Origin: a virus
Taxonomy: Duplodnaviria; Caudoviricetes
Virus record (IMG/VR): IMGVR_UViG_3300012007_000013
Coordinates: 20,435-84,434 of that record
DNA length: 64,000 nt
Reading direction: 5' to 3' (one strand)
This document shows, in pieces, positions 20,119 to 56,304 of this stretch. Every line of letters begins with the position of its first letter. Within the stretch, counting starts at the first letter, position 1. A program made the translations under genes and the position numbers. Below the pieces are notes generated by a model. The model saw only the letters and a program-made list of their open reading frames with translations, made no database searches and was not told where the DNA came from.

Positions 20119-20472
20119 CTAGTTCGTAATTCTCTTTTTTACAGGCGGTCGCTTCTCAAGAGTTGCGACCGCTTCCACTTCTGTACGGAGGAATCCGACT
20201 TTGTGGTTGTTTATCGTGTGCGTTTTTACACCGTGTTTTGCGAGCACTTTCTGCATTGCCTCACGCGAGCCTATGTTAAGGATACGCATTGCATCGTCGT
20301 AAGTCACGAAAGAGTCTTCCCTAAAGTAGCCTTTGTTTTCGGCGTTGACGCGACCGAGCATATAACCTATCTGCTCGTCGTTGCATTCGCCGTTCTCCAT
20401 TCTGTGGAGGATGTCCTTTAAATATCGTATCGCCTCTTTCATAAGTGGCGATTTTACTTTTCCGCCTTCCAT
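20119..20472 (-). CDS. putative HTH DNA-binding protein
   Basis: C-terminal VTYDDAMRILNIGSREAMQKVL resembles an excisionase/MerR-type HTH; basic tail. Confidence 0.45.
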   Translation of the reverse strand: MEGGKVKSPLMKEAIRYLKDILHRMENGECNDEQIGYMLGRVNAENKGYFREDSFVTYDDAMRILNIGSREAMQKVLAKHGVKTHTINNHKVGFLRTEVEAVATLEKRPPVKKRITN

Positions 20473-22445: not shown

Positions 22446-23088
22446 TGCTATCTCGGATTGGGTAGCGAGTTCTTTGACATATTGACAAGTTTTCGTAGTC
22501 TTCGAGGTACATCCATTTGAACCCACCACCTTGGGAGTACAATCCTCGACAACACTGGCTGATGCTTCCTTGGCAAACACCAGTGTGTTTGGATGCTTCA
22601 ACGATACTTACGTATTTCGCTACAAAAGCATTCTCAATCGTCAACTGGATTACTTTCCTTCGTTGGTACGCAGTTTGATGGATAGTCGTTGCCATACGTT
22701 CGTTGTGTCGGCCATAGTTGCAGTTATAAGATTGAGTACACCACTCAAGATTTTCTGAATTATTATTCTCGGGATTTTCGTCCTTGTGATTTATATAAGG
22801 CAGGTTATCTGGGTTTTGTATAAAAGAATTTGCAACAAGTCGATGAATCAAAAATTGTTTACGATGTTTTTCTCCGTCTGATAAGACGACAGATAGGTAT
22901 ACACTCGACTTCCTCGGTTTGATTAGTTGTGGTTTTCTGAAACAGACTCTATCCCCACAAAGATAGGGTGCAGAGAAAGACACTATTCTTCCAAGGTTAG
23001 AAACGGCATATCGGCCTTCGTAACCGACTACATCTCGCCAATCCTCTCCCTCCAATTTAATGGAATTGATGAACTCTTCGTTTGTCAT
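22405..23088 (-). CDS. NUMOD4-HNH-NUMOD1 homing endonuclease
   Basis: EDWRDVVGYEGRYAVSNLGR, IHRLVA..F, INHKDEN..NN...NLEW, FVAKYVSIVEAS; ATG at 23088. Confidence 0.88.
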   Translation of the reverse strand: MTNEEFINSIKLEGEDWRDVVGYEGRYAVSNLGRIVSFSAPYLCGDRVCFRKPQLIKPRKSSVYLSVVLSDGEKHRKQFLIHRLVANSFIQNPDNLPYINHKDENPENNNSENLEWCTQSYNCNYGRHNERMATTIHQTAYQRRKVIQLTIENAFVAKYVSIVEASKHTGVCQGSISQCCRGLYSQGGGFKWMYLEDYENLSICQRTRYPIRDSIIRSCVTSASSNP

Positions 23089-29135: not shown

Positions 29136-29546
29136 TTAATTTACTGCTGCGTTTGTGAGTTTTGTTATCTTTATGTCTTTTCCGTACAAGGCTTTGAACA
29201 TTACTCGCTTCTCCTTGAACTCCGGCGTCTCAAATCCCTTGAAGTCCTCAACGACCTCTTCGCCTTTCTTGTTGACGTAGACAAAATCAGCCTCGTACCA
29301 ATGCTCTCTGTCGTAACGTTTGAGTTCTATCTCGCGTCCATCGGGAAGTCTGCGGATGTCAACCGTGCCTTTGGGGAACAGTGTGTACTTTACGTGGTAT
29401 CTGAGATTGGAGATTTCGCCAGCCTGCTCCATCATTTTAAGGAAATTGTGACGCAATGCTTCATGCTTACTGTCATACCGTATTCCGTCAACCTCAACTA
29501 TTTCGTTGTGGTATTTGCTCTTCGGCTTGTTGTACCAATGCGACAT
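29136..29546 (-). CDS. DUF1064-type PD-(D/E)XK endonuclease (resolvase-like)
   Basis: SKYHN...DGIRYDSKHEA...YEADFVY...VVEDFKG. Confidence 0.8.
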   Translation of the reverse strand: MSHWYNKPKSKYHNEIVEVDGIRYDSKHEALRHNFLKMMEQAGEISNLRYHVKYTLFPKGTVDIRRLPDGREIELKRYDREHWYEADFVYVNKKGEEVVEDFKGFETPEFKEKRVMFKALYGKDIKITKLTNAAVN

Positions 29547-29549
29547 TTC

Positions 29550-30354
29550 TTATTGTATTTTTACAGAAACTAATACTCCATTTTCTTCAACCAAGACATA
29601 GCCGTCAGGAATATCTATACTTAGATTACGCGGGGATTCTTCCGTATATGTGCTGTATGCGTCCTTCATGCAAATTGGAATATTGGTCATATTGTTGAAT
29701 TTTAAAAACTCACATTCTCTGCATCTTTTTGCTGCTCTGCGATTTCTGTATTTCTTGGGGCAACTTTTACTTGGTTTTATAAAATCATCATAAGGGTCCA
29801 TATCTTTTATTCTTTTACGAGTTCAACAAAATCGTTAATCGGCGCGTCCTTTGTCGGATGAATTTTAATCTTATTCTCGACGAACAATTTGTTCAGCACC
29901 TTGCGAATGTCCTTGTTTATCGCGCCGAGCAACTCGCCTTTTCTGACAAAGTTCGGTATGACGGTAGACTTTGCTTTCTCCGTCTGCATCGCGTCGAGTT
30001 TCAATGTGATGTATTGTTCAAGATTGGTCATTATCGTGAATTTAACGTAAACAAAAGTAAAGTTCTGTCCACGCCGCTTACATTTGAAATTTCACCGTAG
30101 TAATCAACGCAACCATCTTTGTTTACCTGTCCTATTATAATACCATCATCAGGTACGACACCCCATAAAAGAGACACTAGAACTACATGGCAAACTGTGC
30201 AATCCTTATTTTCTTGTATAAAAGACAAGACTGTTTCGTGGTCACGTGTAGTAAATCTTTCTTTTACAAACATATTCCATTCGGAAATGTCATATAGCCC
30301 TTTTGTTTTTTGTTTGACAATAGAAACAATTTCATTTAATGTCTTTATATTCAT
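29550..30354 (-). CDS. three small hypothetical proteins (29550-29801, 29807-30031, 30031-30354)
   Basis: Closely packed, co-oriented ORFs. Confidence 0.55.
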
Positions 30355-30365
30355 ATTGTTAATAA

Positions 30366-31121
30366 TTAGAAGTTGTCACTTTCTACCTCAAATGTATCTC
30401 CGCTGTGAGCCACTGACACTTTCACGAGAGGCAGTGCGTCTTGAACAGACTTCAATGCAAAGTCCTCGTTTATGTTTTGGTGACTGAGATGTATTAGGAT
30501 TATCTGCTTTGTGCTGATTGACGAGTTGCGTCTGCAGAAGTCGATGCAGTCTTCAAGTCCCATGTGGTTCTCGGGGTGGCTCCGGCTCTGTTCCGCGTTG
30601 ACAAAGTTGTCGATGAGCGTGTCGTCATCGTGGTTGCATTCGACCATTATGCAGTCGATGTCCTTGAAGTTGTACTGACACCCCATAGCGTCCGTGACGA
30701 ACACAATGCGTTCCTTTGTCGGCGTTACTATCAGAAAGCCGTAATTTGGCACGTTGTGGGCGACTTCGAACGGCTGGACGACAAATCCTCCGACGAACGT
30801 CTTTTGAGCCATAGGAAGCGGCTTTATGCCCTTAATCGAGCCTTCTTTTAGCAGTTCCTCGTAGACTTTCTCGCCGCAGAACACTGGGATACCTCGTCTG
30901 ATAAACTCTTTTGCGGTGGACTTGTTTAAATGGTCTGTGTGCCTTGGTTTTATTCACCAGTGCGAGGCGATACAGCCCCGCACCGATGCAAAGTCCTCCA
31001 TATTTAATGTATAATCCATCATTTTCATTCCGAGTTCCACAATCAAACATTGATTGTTAGAGCGTAGCAAAAATCCGTTTCCTGTGCTACCAGTGTTTAC
31101 TACCTTGATACTTGTTCCCAT
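30366..31121 (-). CDS. MBL-fold metallo-hydrolase (putative exonuclease) with in-frame TGA in the HxHxDH motif
   Basis: ATG 31121 MGTSIKVVNTGSTGNG...; SH[W*IKP]RHTDH; downstream H.V, FVTD, ECNHD, HM and LIHLS motifs intact. Confidence 0.75.
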
Positions 31122-31681
31122 ATAAATCCTCCCGCTTGTTTTCTGATGTGTCCTGGGCAGAACTCTTCTTTACCTGCCACCTGTTTTATATTTCTTGCAC
31201 ATACACCGGTTGCCCTACTCGCTTCCGCTGCATTTTCATACATTGCGATAAAGTTGCCTTGCAAGTCCTTTTGAATGATTTTTTGCGGTCTTACATACTT
31301 ATTGTAATAGTTCATTCCTTTTACGTCCCTCGAATCAATATCTTTTTTATAGTGTTCTTCTGCGGATACAAGTTCAAGATTTTCAACGCAATTATTTTGC
31401 TTATTATGGTCTTTATGGTGAATGTGCCATTTGTGTCCTCTTGGTATTTCTCCAACAAAATGTTCATAGACTAATCTGTGTATCCTTGTGTATTTAACCT
31501 TCCCCATCCATTGAAGAATCACGGAAAAATATCCGCCTTTTGCATTTACATTTGGCAAGACACGCCATTCTGTGATTCTTTGAGTGGGGTTCCTTCTTTT
31601 TTTACACGATAGAAGAGTGCCTTTATCGCCTATCCGATAGACACCTTCAAACCCTTTAATATCTACAAATTTTTCTTCCAT
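31100..31681 (-). CDS. NUMOD4-HNH-NUMOD1 homing endonuclease
   Basis: FVDIKGFEGVYRIGDKG, IHRLVYEHF, IHHKDHNKQNNCVENLE, YENAAEASR. Confidence 0.88.
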   Translation of the reverse strand: MEEKFVDIKGFEGVYRIGDKGTLLSCKKRRNPTQRITEWRVLPNVNAKGGYFSVILQWMGKVKYTRIHRLVYEHFVGEIPRGHKWHIHHKDHNKQNNCVENLELVSAEEHYKKDIDSRDVKGMNYYNKYVRPQKIIQKDLQGNFIAMYENAAEASRATGVCARNIKQVAGKEEFCPGHIRKQAGGFIWEQVSR

Positions 31682-31682
31682 A

Positions 31683-31802
31683 TTATTCGTTTTTATAGTC
31701 CATCATTTTGCACCCAAGTTCGAGCACAAGAGCCTGACCGCCGCTTTCGAGAATGTAGCCGTTCGCAGATGAAGATGAAGAGCAAACGTGAATAGTGGTC
31801 AT
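31683..31802 (-). pseudogene. orphaned original N-terminus of the MBL hydrolase (39 aa)
   Basis: MTTIHVCSSSSSANGYILESGGQALVLELGCKMMDY aligns with residues 1-37 of 30366..31121. Confidence 0.75.
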
Positions 31803-31822
31803 ATTATCGTTTCATAGTATAG

Positions 31823-32502
31823 TTAATACGTCTCGTGCATATAGTCGCCTGCTTTTATTTCAGAATTTTCATCTTCTGAGCACTCTATAAATTCAGGAAC
31901 TTGTGCTTCAAAAGTATCGTATAGAATCCAAATATTCTTTTCTTGGTCAAAACCTTGCAGGATTTCTATTAATTCTTTTACTTTCATAACTTATAATTTT
32001 ATTCCGTAGTATTTTATTTTGAATTTAATAATATTGCTATATATATCAAACTTGTTACGTAGGCGCTCATCATTGACAAAAACGCAAAAATTGCAGTTAT
32101 GTCAAGTATACAAATATCCCTTACTTGTACTCCGAAAAGAGAAAAAGATGGTAATAAAATCGCTTGCCCTGCTTGTGGGAACGCAAATATAAATAATAAA
32201 AGAAGTACAAAAAAAGCAATAAACGAAACAAAGAAACCGATTAAACAATCTTCTATTTCATCTCGAAACTTTAATTCTTCATTCCCCATAATACTCATTT
32301 ATTTTTGATTAAACAGTTTTTCAAGTTCTTCCTGCAACAAGTCGAACGCTTCTTGGTCGCAGATGTGCTCGTATGCCTCCCTCCATTCCATCGCCCTGTC
32401 GTGGAAATAGGCACCGTCGGCGAAATAAACGCTTTGCGCCATAGCACGGATTATCTCCGTGTCATTCGCAGTTACCTTTTGATGTGCTTCTACCTCTTTC
32501 AT
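31823..32502 (-). CDS. three small proteins (31823-31987; membrane protein 32014-32298; 32299-32502)
   Basis: Co-oriented short ORFs; the middle one is hydrophobic and AT-rich. Confidence 0.5.
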
Positions 32503-32594
32503 TGTCTTTTTGACTTAGTGCCCGTGGGTTTGTCTCCTTGCCCACGGGCTGTTGGCTGTCCAGAGCCTCCTTTGTATAGTTGGCGAACCTCGGG

Positions 32595-33356
32595 TTATTC
32601 GATGACTTTCACCTCTTCGATTGGGTGTTCTCGCGCCCACTCCATTTTGAGGTCGTTCATACGGCGTTCGATGTCGTGCTGACGTGCGGTGTGTGCGTCG
32701 CGCTGTCTGTTCACGGCTTCACGATAGCGGTCGTTTTCCTTTCGTTGATTCTCGACGTGTTCCTTGTTCAAGGCGTCAAGGGTTTCGCGGTTTTTTTTTC
32801 CGTTGTCCTGCTGCTCTTCGCGCAGTGATTGCATCTTTTGCAGATACTCTTCTCGGTTCATAATTCTGTTGATTTAATTGGTTTTTATTTCAATCTTCTT
32901 GAGTATTCTCTTGTACCACGGGAGGGCGTTGAATCGCTCTATCTCTTTGTGTTCTGTATCTCTTTGGTCATAAGCATCGTCTAACTGCTTGTTTAATTTT
33001 TTGATTTCATCGTTGAGTTTTTCAATTTTGCCATCTTTGTGACTGATTTCAGACAGAAGCCCTGCCTGTTCAGCATTTGGGTTTATTATACACCCAATGC
33101 TTTCAGTAAGGCATTCTTTTTCTCCCGTAATTGCATCAATCACTACTTTACACTTCTCGCGTGAAATAAATGCCGGAATATTTTTTAATTGTGAGATAAT
33201 AATCCCCATCGTCTTTGCGTTGCAAGTGAAGTTGCCGTACATCTTAACGTACTGCTCACCGTCAACCCAAACACCTTTGTTGCTTTCAACAACAAGTTTG
33301 CCGTCATCGTTGAAGTAGAAGTACTGCGGGCGCTGTTCTTGTTTTTTTTCTTCCAT
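32595..33356 (-). CDS. two hypothetical coiled-coil proteins (32595-32861, 32874-33356)
   Basis: ORFs with charged heptad patterns. Confidence 0.6.
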
Positions 33357-33381: not shown

Positions 33382-33464
33382 TGCCACAGGCCGGACTCGA
33401 ACCGACATCGGACGCGGGGCGTCATTTTACCAACTGACCAATAGGGTCATTAAACTACGGTGGC
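33382..33464 (-). ncRNA. atypical tRNA-like element
   Basis: Acceptor stem GCCACCG/CTGTGGC (6/7), T-arm GTCGG-TTCGAGT-CCGGC, D-arm with a 15-nt hairpin insert, anticodon arm GACGC-CCC-GCGTC; no encoded CCA. Confidence 0.6.
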
Positions 33465-43206: not shown

Positions 43207-44262
43207 TTAATTGTTTTCAAATAATGGTGTAAACCTCCAAATAAAACCTTTGTAGGTTTTTCTCTTTCCAAGACAGCAAGAACTTATATTATTTGCGCGA
43301 AAACCGTTTCTTTGACATTCTGTTTCACTTGGCCATATTTTAATTAATTCAAAATCTAACGAGTATTGGTAAACTTTCTTCTTCTTCTCTGAGTTCCTGT
43401 TTAATACTTTTTCTTTTATATTATTTAATTCGTTTTCATGAAGGGCTTTGAAACTCCAGATATGCCCTTTATGCTTTGTTTGCTTCCCAATGCAGCAATT
43501 AGAAATACACGCTTGCGAGAATCCAAATTTTTCAGGTTCTGCTTCGTTGTTCCATATATTAACAAGTTCCCCATCAAGTGTGTATTGATACACTTTCCTA
43601 ACCAAATGTTTGTTTAATTTAGGAATGGCCATTTTTGAAAATTCAAGCAACTCTTGTTTGCTCATTTCATAGAAACTCCAAATAAAACCTTTATGCGTGA
43701 GTCTTTCTTTTTTACAACACGCATGAACTTTGCATACTAAAAATCCTTTTTCTTTAAACTCTTTTGAATACTCCCATTTCTTTATAAACTCACCATCGAG
43801 TGAATATTGAAAGACAGGGATTGTCTTTGTCTTTGAAGTCCTTTGCGCTGATGTCCCGTACCTATTGTTTTCTGTGCTTGTAACTACTTCGAGGTTTTCT
43901 GCACAGTTATTATGTGGGTTCTCGTCTTTGTGATTTATAACAAACATTTTGTCTCCGTTACCTTTGCCCATGTATTTAAACTCAGGGAGTATTCCATTGA
44001 ATGCTTTATAAACCAATCTGTGAACAAAAATTTTCTTTGTTTTGTTGTCTTTGCACAATGTAACCCTATGGTGTTCTTTTCTAATGTCATGCCGTAAAAG
44101 CGATGGTCTGTTTGTCGAATGATAATTCAAACTTTTTACCCTACCTTTGTTGCTCACTTGATACAGCCCTTCGTACCCCACAACGTCTTTCCAGACCTCA
44201 CCGTCAAGGTCGACGATAGGTTCGTGCACTTTTTTAGACTTTCGTCCTTCCGTTTGTTTCAT
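43207..44262 (-). CDS. NUMOD4-HNH endonuclease with three NUMOD1-like repeats
   Basis: EVWKDVVGYEGLYQVSNKGR, VHRLVY, INHKDENPHNN..ENLE; three V.QY.LDG...K.W repeats. Confidence 0.88.
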   Translation of the reverse strand: MKQTEGRKSKKVHEPIVDLDGEVWKDVVGYEGLYQVSNKGRVKSLNYHSTNRPSLLRHDIRKEHHRVTLCKDNKTKKIFVHRLVYKAFNGILPEFKYMGKGNGDKMFVINHKDENPHNNCAENLEVVTSTENNRYGTSAQRTSKTKTIPVFQYSLDGEFIKKWEYSKEFKEKGFLVCKVHACCKKERLTHKGFIWSFYEMSKQELLEFSKMAIPKLNKHLVRKVYQYTLDGELVNIWNNEAEPEKFGFSQACISNCCIGKQTKHKGHIWSFKALHENELNNIKEKVLNRNSEKKKKVYQYSLDFELIKIWPSETECQRNGFRANNISSCCLGKRKTYKGFIWRFTPLFENN

Positions 44263-55638: not shown

Positions 55639-56160
55639 TCATAATGGTCTATATGACCACATATATCCCTGTGCGGTTTTTCTTTCTCCTCTGCAACAAG
55701 ATGCTACATTACCGAAATGAAATCCGTTTCTGTTGCATTCCATAACACTTTGCCATATTTTAACCAACACTTTGTTCTTTGTATATTGGTATACTTTTTT
55801 AGATGAACTATGATTCACATTTTCACTATGAGTGACGAGTTCTAAGTTCCAAACGGCATTATTTGATTTGTTTTTGTCTATGTGGTTTATCTCCATTCGC
55901 TCGGAACCCACACCACTCTTATTGAAAGCGGGTATATCCGAAACAAAAGTCATATAAACGAGTCTGTGAGCAAAAATAAACCACCTCTTCTGCTTTTTTG
56001 TTAGTACATACATGTGATAACCATGTGGGTCGATATATGGCTTTAGGATTTTACTTTTTCCTGTTAAATGATAGTTTAACGATTTAATCCTACCATAATT
56101 ACTCACTTGATACATCCCTTCGTATCCTTTAACATCCTTCCATATTTCTTGTGTTTCCAT
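55639..56160 (-). CDS. NUMOD4-HNH homing endonuclease
   Basis: EIWKDVKGYEGMYQVSNYGR, AHRLVY, INHIDKNKSNN..WNLE; ATG at 56160. Confidence 0.88.
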   Translation of the reverse strand: METQEIWKDVKGYEGMYQVSNYGRIKSLNYHLTGKSKILKPYIDPHGYHMYVLTKKQKRWFIFAHRLVYMTFVSDIPAFNKSGVGSERMEINHIDKNKSNNAVWNLELVTHSENVNHSSSKKVYQYTKNKVLVKIWQSVMECNRNGFHFGNVASCCRGERKTAQGYMWSYRPL

Positions 56161-56208
56161 TGTATAAAAATATAAATCTGCACTACGAGTTGTCAGGTTC
56201 AAATTAGC

Positions 56209-56304
56209 CTAAACCTTGTGGACGTTTCCGTTACCACACTCGGTGCAGATGTTATATTTAATCCCTTTGATATGCAAAACGCTAACAATGAATGTTTGCG
56301 GCAT
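56209..56304 (-). promoter_or_regulatory. 31-aa leader uORF within a structured 5' leader
   Basis: MPQTFIVSVLHIKGIKYNICTECGNGNVHKV*, between the promoter at 56329 and the HNH ATG. Confidence 0.45.

Follow-up and report, generated by a model that had tools for sequence, protein, structure and literature searches.

How can an enzyme gene be kept when the gene of a homing endonuclease comes to lie within its coding sequence? The question is raised by a locus in the virus record IMGVR_UViG_3300012007_000013 (Duplodnaviria; Caudoviricetes) of IMG/VR, an 84.4-kb, 99%-complete sequence of which 64,000 nt were analysed (positions 20,435 to 84,434 of the record; this whole stretch is called the window and its numbering is used below). 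On the minus strand of the window, which carries all cassette and hydrolase features, the start of a metallo-beta-lactamase-fold (MBL) hydrolase gene is present twice, once ahead of an HNH endonuclease gene as a short stub and once behind it as a second start that runs into a stop-containing gap of 15 nt. The best explanation, to which we assign a probability of about 0.8, combines a homing cassette, which would consist of the HNH gene and a hydrolase N-terminus of its own, with a re-start of the invaded gene from this N-terminus and a short ribosomal hop over the gap at the right end of the cassette.

For comparison, scans of metagenomes and of IMG/VR yielded 19 related loci, the searches of IMG/VR giving only six loci, and more loci (L035, L036 and L037) were reached via a protein collection; L-numbers denote related loci and P-numbers protein clusters. 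The relatives originated from rumen-type and other gut metagenomes. At this one locus the HNH gene was polymorphic, being absent in L003, L004, L006, L008 and L018 and present in the window, L002 and L035. The HNH-less alleles start MT... and run as one uninterrupted gene. When aligned with L004, the window was homologous in its DNA (92.8% identity) from the gene upstream as far as 31696, homology resumed at 30943, and positions 31695-30944 of the window (752 nt) stand in place of 53 nt of L004. We read the 752 nt as a free-standing HNH cassette that would have replaced those 53 nt in the 5' part of the hydrolase gene and left the 36 native codons upstream. The cassette copy of codons 1-55, which begins in the stop region of the HNH gene, would then re-start the hydrolase, so that the gene would be neither split nor destroyed.

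The preliminary description of this DNA, made from the letters alone, had seen a truncated MBL start upstream of the HNH gene. This was borne out by L004, which equals the stub at 36/36 residues and then continues TLKIKDAFTIKGCVVTHWHTDH with an intact THWHTDH. The stub open reading frame (ORF) reads MTTIHVCSSSSSANGYILESGGQALVLELGCKMMDYKNE followed by a stop (MTTIHV...MMDYKNE), and by these matches it is host-derived sequence displaced by the cassette. Its stop codon sits 1 nt ahead of the ATG of the HNH gene, an arrangement that points to translational coupling between stub and nuclease gene; for the same reason the nuclease probably uses the transcription and translation signals of the hydrolase gene, and the old start may now drive the translation of the nuclease. 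The leader junction of the window recurred in L002 and L035, and other leaders were found at about the same codon in L036 and L037.

The ORF behind the stub, described earlier as a homing endonuclease, matched HNH_3 (5.9e-13) and NUMOD4 (3.9e-07) in Pfam, with a weak match to NUMOD1 under the curated cut-off (0.013), as well as PHROG 59 (2.6e-31). I-HmuI was the nearest solved structure (1U3E, 2.2e-6), and 13 of the 247 homologues found were 68-88% identical. The protein is thus predicted to be a free-standing, I-HmuI-like homing endonuclease.

The second start, an ATG at 31121, was thought to overlap the end of the HNH ORF and to be continuous with the rest of the hydrolase gene. The overlap (22 nt) and the common frame were found as described, but the frame is closed by a TGA (30956-30954) after 55 codons. 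The second copy reads MGTSIKVV...ELGMKMMDYTLNMEDFASVRGCIASHW up to this stop and includes MMDYTLNMEDF. The two N-termini could be aligned across 35 aa with 51% identity (E 2e-9) and are thus homologous. The second one was 100% identical in L002 and shared approximately 50% identity with both the stub and the N-termini found in HNH-less alleles.

The convergence of the two copies had also been taken to mark the crossover. Since the ELG.KMMDY block in question is conserved in the family and common to most alleles (L003-L008, L018), it is no proof of a crossover when taken alone; the junction does, though, lie right behind it, as stub and L004 diverge directly after GAC TAY (the TAT codon), at 31696/31695. 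An HNH-less allele with the MTTIHV start joined to TLNMEDF had been expected. The uninterrupted MTTIHV start was seen in L004, but it continues TLKIKDAF...; HNH-less alleles keep their own codons 37-54 and TLNMEDF is cassette sequence. Conversely, an MGTSIK start was seen in none of the HNH-less relatives, all of which start MT..., apart from an allele that retains a remnant of the HNH gene (L009).

Evidence for movement came from the related loci. In L002 stub, HNH gene and second start follow each other in the same order as in the window, and the two sequences differ at only 2 positions in 31702-30850 (approximately 850 nt), against differences of 10-20% in the flanks. The stubs of the two loci differ by 11 mismatches in approximately 100 nt and the gene bodies at about 1 position in 10; the stub has therefore diverged at the rate of the flanks and not at that of the cassette. 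In L007 identity to the window stops 6 nt past the gap, from which it follows that the right end of the converted tract varies, starting at the HxHxDH codons. HNH homologues with 87%, 81% and 72% identity were present in L035, L036 and L037, where they stand behind stubs of different host lineages (MTRIQT..., MTEIRIV... and MTEITIV...). These stubs are cut at about codon 36-42 and are followed, behind the nuclease, by an MG[TS]-type N-terminus. Four stub types in all were counted, following the host backbone, and related cassettes behind stubs of four host lineages indicate that the cassette moves, as the preliminary description had proposed. That the stub belongs to the recipient backbone and that the HNH gene and the second N-terminus form one mobile module is supported by these sequence comparisons.

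The MG-type start was found only right behind an HNH gene (window, L002, L028/29, L035, L036, L037) or behind an HNH remnant. The latter is the case in L009 (673-771), where the hydrolase start is preceded by just the last 33 HNH codons; this looks like a "hit and run", the nuclease having been lost and the replacement N-terminus left. MG[ST] starts occurred in 10/88 full-length protein clusters, joined to C-termini 58-94% identical to that of the window.

Homologous N-termini on both sides of an HNH gene could also result from a local tandem duplication of the 5' end of the gene, with an unrelated HNH gene dropped between the copies later and no mobile cassette involved. We consider this highly improbable, because identity between the copies is as low as 51% in protein and approximately 50% in DNA outside ELG.KMMDY, whereas the stub equals L004 completely in protein, and because HNH gene and second copy are near-identical in L002 between clearly different flanks and recur as one module behind four stub lineages. 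Still less credible is that the HNH gene resides in a group I intron, or an intein, with stub and gene body being spliced together. HNH genes of the I-HmuI type are in many instances carried by introns in phages, and the match to 1U3E would fit; the stub, however, ends in a stop, the HNH gene is a separate ORF, and a full second N-terminus would be redundant with splicing. When both strands of 29500-33000 were searched for known RNAs and group I introns, Rfam returned no match at E <= 1, in agreement with the intron-free state assumed before. We are highly confident that a nuclease cassette, an HNH gene with its own hydrolase N-terminus inserted in the 5' part of the hydrolase gene, is part of the explanation.

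The remainder of the hydrolase gene has a family-typical C-terminus with 80-95% amino acid identity to its relatives. For the whole gene, residues 3-247 matched PHROG 392, "metal-dependent hydrolase" (1.4e-44), and full-length relatives carry Pfam PF12706. Among distant GenBank relatives (approximately 30% identical) the annotations metal-dependent hydrolase, YycJ-like and anti-Pycsar Apyc1-like occur, and these relatives are the only source of the Apyc1 label. A single-sequence search of the PDB with the hydrolase returned no match and a profile search returned only weak MBL matches. In the family alignment H53, H55, D57 and H58, which make up the HxHxDH motif, are invariant, and in the window this motif is contiguous only if the 15-nt gap is skipped: the sequence reads S-H-W-stop-I-K-P-R-H-T-D-H, and without TGAATAAAACCAAGG it becomes HWHTDH, as in L003 and L004. 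The gene had been described as repaired by the element. The cassette indeed supplies a replacement N-terminus, but the repair is complete only if the gap is bypassed.

Gaps at this exact spot turned out to be widespread (Table 1). Fifteen types were found, 3-16 nt long, in all three phases, and with or without an HNH gene; translation of the gap is therefore impossible as a general answer. Removal of the gap restored HxHxDH in every type. The gap begins with TGA, directly after the x codon, in 13/15 types and with CGA in the other 2. The last triplet of the gap, the proposed landing site, is identical to the take-off codon in five types (AGG/AGG twice, CGA/CGA twice, TGG/TGG; L026, L027, L033/34, L035, L036), and in six further types, including the window with UGG/AGG, positions 2-3 match (NGG/AGG). 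Fragments, for which an alternative start was called at the gap site, make up approximately 30% of the related protein clusters.

Table 1. Features of the locus in the window, gap types of related loci, and further HNH homologues in the genome.
Feature	Position	Strand	Take-off codon	Gap	Gap length (nt)	Remark
Stub of MBL hydrolase gene	31683..31802	(-)				39 codons: 36 native, KNE, then TAA stop
Cassette left end, 14-nt leader	31682..31695	(-)				AAAAACGAATAAT plus one base; read from sequence
Free-standing HNH endonuclease gene (predicted)	31100..31681	(-)				193 aa; Pfam, PHROG and structure matches
Cassette-borne replacement N-terminus	30957..31121	(-)				55 codons, MGTSIK to ASHW; ORF reading
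Shine-Dalgarno-like GGAGG	30995..30999	(-)				11 nt 5' of hairpin
9-bp hairpin	30960..30983	(-)				GTGCGGGGC / 6-nt loop / GCCTCGCAC; ends on first His codon of HxHxDH
Proposed take-off codon	30957..30959	(-)	TGG			x of HxH; stop codon directly after
Coding gap of the window, cassette right end	30942..30956	(-)	TGG	TGAATAAAACCAAGG	15	TGA first, AGG (proposed landing triplet) last
Rest of MBL hydrolase gene	30366..30941	(-)				HTDH... to stop; 191 codons, complete, host-derived
Gap, L036			CGA	CGA	3	
Gap, L032, L033, L034			CGG (L032), AGG (L033, L034)	TGAGG	5	
Gap, L005			AGG	TGAGC	5	
Gap, L001			CGA	TGAAGC	6	
Gap, L027			CGA	TGACCGA	7	
Gap, L030			CGA	TGAAAGC	7	
Gap, L026			AGG	TGACAAGG	8	
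Gap, L017			TGG	TGACGAAGG	9	
Gap, L035			TGG	TGAGTATGG	9	
Gap, L015			CGA	CGAAGATAAAGT	12	
Gap, L016			CGG	TGACAAACTAAGG	13	
Gap, L028			TGG	TGAACAAAAACCAAGG	16	
Gap, L031			CGG	TGAGATAAATATAAGG	16	
Further HNH homologue	22513-23046	(-)				whole-genome search
Further HNH homologue	43678-44199	(-)				whole-genome search
Further HNH homologue	55657-56151	(-)				whole-genome search
Further HNH homologue outside the window	G000:C1:14120-14638					whole-genome search

Several ways of translating through the stop were considered and rejected. Genome-wide recoding of TGA does not apply, as TGA terminates 15/41 long ORFs. A suppressor tRNA gene was not found, tRNA genes being absent from the window and from the remaining 20 kb of the genome. 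Read-through of the stop cannot serve all alleles, since the frame is shifted by gaps of 5, 7, 8, 13 and 16 nt. By reasoning, -1 or +2 frameshifting would not give the invariant motif but HxxHxDH or HxxxHxDH, and no triplet for re-pairing would be available. A tRNA-like element was noted at 33382-33464 (-), which scored 29.3 bits against the Rfam tRNA family (gathering score 29) and was not called by ARAGORN. It has a 20-nt insert in the D-region and an anticodon loop of 3 nt, for which reason it cannot decode, and lies in a region 85-93% conserved in L001 and L003.

A hairpin was found immediately 5' of the take-off codon in every gap allele and in no gap-free allele examined. Its predicted stability was -16.4 kcal/mol in the window (segment z-score -4.5) and -14 to -17 kcal/mol among the gap alleles, and the same 24 nt gave -1 to -7 kcal/mol in nine gap-free alleles. 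In 14 distinct sequences 99.2% of the pair cells were paired, with compensatory changes in 5/9 pairs; 0/500 shuffles reached the observed values and slid controls collapsed. The take-off codon is not enclosed in a stem-loop, the conserved hairpin lying 5' of it. Extension of the hairpin into this codon is variable (1-5 bp), and a 4-bp UGGU/ACCA mini-stem was restricted to the window-type gap. A GGAGG was seen, by eye, 4-11 nt before the hairpin in 12/13 gap types (window, L001, L005, L015-17, L026, L028, L030-34), in differing codon phases, and in 1/7 gap-free types.

In L036 (921-1655) the hairpin is kept ahead of a 3-nt gap (CGA CGA), and the protein reads HRRHHDH with no stop; the allele represents a +3 hop across a rare codon, or else one inserted residue that is tolerated.

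From this arrangement we propose a short hop. With the UGA in the A site, peptidyl-tRNA(Trp) would leave the UGG. When the take-off codon occupies the P site the 3' arm of the hairpin would be inside the ribosome, and its refolding just behind the ribosome would pull the mRNA through, by 5-16 nt across the gap types. The tRNA would then re-pair at AGG, and decoding would resume at CAC to give HWHTDH. That ribosomes hop over the 15-nt gap is, to judge from these features, moderately probable.

If the gap is not hopped, the hydrolase gene could simply be dead. It would then be a pseudogene, with the second N-terminus dragged along by co-conversion and the gaps being nuclease-resistant nulls or scars of misrepair. 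Several observations fit with this: the in-frame TGA after 55 codons, the failure of Pfam to find anything in the read-through protein, and the probably accessory nature of the gene, whose distant relatives bear the labels anti-Pycsar or metal-dependent hydrolase. Gap alleles are, moreover, often without the HNH gene, as expected of resistant alleles. On the other hand, the downstream frame was complete (187-191 codons) in 16/16 gap alleles, which share 53-95% protein identity, and contained no second lesion. Between pairs of gap alleles dN/dS of this frame was 0.07-0.2 at dS of 0.4-1.2. A scar would need no covarying hairpin confined to gap alleles. In addition, 13/15 gap types start with TGA directly behind the x codon, and matches between landing and take-off triplets exceed by far the chance expectation of 1/64. 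We therefore regard a dead gene as unlikely.

The gene might also be expressed as two polypeptides, a 55-residue N-fragment and a C-fragment made by termination and reinitiation, which would assemble like the products of the split genes of T4 MobA or Aeh1 MobE. Most gap types have an RTG that overlaps with the stop, as GTGA or ATGA; where the gap is 5 or 8 nt long this GTG shares the frame of the downstream part, and gene callers predict fragments of 189-207 aa. For gaps of 6, 7, 9, 12, 13, 15 (the window) and 16 nt, however, the overlapping GTG or ATG is out of frame, and in these alleles the first in-frame canonical start lies past HxDH (in the window a GTG at 30884). Nor does reinitiation explain the matched triplets and the hairpin, and we consider it very improbable that two fragments are made.

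Some observations weigh against a homing cassette with a hop. The link between gap and HNH gene is loose: a nearby HNH gene is lacking in many gap alleles (L001, L005, L015-17, L026, L027, L030-34), and in L037 an HNH cassette is present but no gap. Take-off and landing triplet of the window agree at only 2/3 positions. Stop-free in-frame gaps were present behind hairpin-type peptides in 14 full-length clusters (including P0068, P0078, P0114 and P0032), with motifs such as SHRIGHTDH, SHRRHSDH, SHRIRHTDH and SHWWECHSDH; either a small insertion may be tolerated by the enzyme, or these alleles may be in the course of being lost. The downstream frames could look selected as a result of recombination with intact alleles. 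A role of the GGAGG is doubtful given that the hosts are probably Bacteroidota, the genes lacking Shine-Dalgarno sequences, and immunity of the carrier through the gap and/or the recoded copy may exist, by analogy only.

The homing cassette would spread by repair of a double-strand break, with the stub and the upstream gene as left arm and the conserved sequence after HxHxDH as right arm. The diverged copy, the gap, or both would protect the carrier from its own nuclease; this immunity, the cleavage specificity and the hop are what we infer, whereas the sequences themselves show the anatomy, the polymorphism for the HNH gene, the mosaic pattern indicative of transfer, the covariation of the hairpin and the selection on the downstream frame. 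By analogy with MobA and gene 60 of phage T4 the gap may protect the carrier, and HNH-less gap alleles may be resistant survivors or partial conversions.

In HNH-less gap alleles a mosaic block was observed: in L001 (4093-4164) a stretch of approximately 70 nt that begins at codon 32 and reaches the gap is unlike L004, although both flanks are homologous. From this block it appears that a hop module may move without the nuclease. A further-reaching proposal, which we hold to be evenly balanced, is that the locus represents a second, independent natural homing endonuclease that travels with a programmed bypass, that its hop of 3-16 nt is mainly hairpin-driven, and that a hop module of approximately 70 nt (GGAGG, hairpin, take-off codon, stop and gap) spreads alone as immunity to the nuclease.

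Since the genes of the window lack Shine-Dalgarno sequences, the host of the phage, which is uncultured, probably belongs to the Bacteroidota. Among GenBank phages there was no DNA match to the locus and protein matches were at most 31% identical, and the prokaryote genome collection searched contained no relative. A search of the whole 84-kb genome revealed four more homologues of the HNH endonuclease, 32-36% identical (Table 1). A c4-2 antisense-type RNA (RF02944, 56.7 bits) was found at 56174-56250 (-), overlapping the 5' end of an HNH-like ORF at 55639-56202. Literature searches turned up no account of this hydrolase and none of natural hops as short as these in phages.

Homing endonuclease genes usually spare the host gene in one of three ways, by residing between genes, in a self-splicing intron or in an intein. 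The phage cassette would represent a fourth route, in which a spare gene start is brought along and the old start is left as a stub. New as a variant is a cassette in a phage that exchanges the 5' end of the gene, start codon and all, and leaves a stub apparently coupled to the nuclease. If the proposal holds, the cassette-borne start and the hop module together form a kit to "invade, repair and protect" that needs neither intron nor intein.

In fungal mitochondria free-standing homing endonuclease genes, mostly of the GIY-YIG or LAGLIDADG class, bring along a duplicated gene end (e.g. Allomyces atp6). The phage cassette resembles these in that the element carries a substitute terminus and the original is left as a non-functional remnant. 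It differs in that the 5' end and the start codon are replaced, instead of the 3' end, in the class of nuclease, and in the presence of a coding gap. In the intronless homing of the T-even Seg and Mob elements, on which there is a review (PMC2988022), the nuclease cuts the nuclease-less allele nearby and the flanks are co-converted with variable tract ends. The gene-adjacent position of the nuclease gene and the variable tract ends are shared with the locus described here; the T-even elements lie between genes, whereas this cassette lies within a coding sequence and needs the duplicate N-terminus.

Gene-internal insertions of phage Mob elements leave split genes, in the account given in bioRxiv 10.1101/2022.08.31.505936. 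For Aeromonas phage Aeh1 the same source describes MobE inside the nrdA ORF, the two halves being made separately and assembling. In both cases an endonuclease gene without intron or intein has its place within an ORF, and an improvised remedy preserves the host function; unlike in Aeh1, the upstream part is here discarded as a stub and replaced by the copy of the cassette.

Bypassing outside phages, as summarised in bioRxiv 10.1101/2022.08.31.505936, includes slow-codon hops in E. coli, which are synthetic and of low efficiency, and the byps of Magnusiomyces mitochondria, which are 27-55 nt long and confined to one yeast lineage. Common to these and to the hop proposed here is frame-independent re-pairing to a nearby triplet while the A site holds a stop or hungry codon, imperfect matches being tolerated. 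Neither is tied to a homing endonuclease, in contrast to the gap at the end of the nuclease cassette.

The nearest parallel is gene 60 of phage T4. MobA travels with the gene 60 gap, and the gap blocks nicking by MobA (Bonocora et al. 2011, as presented by Manning & Atkins, bioRxiv 10.1101/2022.08.31.505936). According to Manning & Atkins (bioRxiv 10.1101/2022.08.31.505936), all published bypasses of the gene 60 type are homologous insertions in myovirus topoisomerase genes, and similar bypassing in other phages has not been reported; pairing of the mRNA at the ribosome exit has been proposed as a driver in gene 60 (bioRxiv 10.1101/2022.08.31.505936). As in the T4 system of MobA, gene 39 and gene 60, a free-standing endonuclease gene is found here inside a conserved enzyme gene, it moves with a recoded flank and a stop-led, untranslatable gap at the metal-binding or catalytic region, and it can vanish while the gap remains. 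As in gene 60, a stop follows the take-off codon and a landing triplet is proposed to re-pair. The differences are equally clear. The host gene encodes an MBL hydrolase of rumen-type, probably Bacteroidota phages and not the T4 topoisomerase, the gaps measure 3-16 nt against 50 nt, and the hairpin lies immediately 5' of the take-off codon instead of forming a stem-loop that contains it. Where MobA splits its gene in two and tails are added, the hydrolase gene is re-started with a full duplicate N-terminus. If the gap is hopped, annotation pipelines miss such genes, gene callers splitting or truncating them as in the fragment clusters above, and the 15 natural gap types allow the rules of take-off, landing and 5' RNA structure to be tested. 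T4 gene 60, long treated as isolated, would then gain an unrelated natural counterpart.

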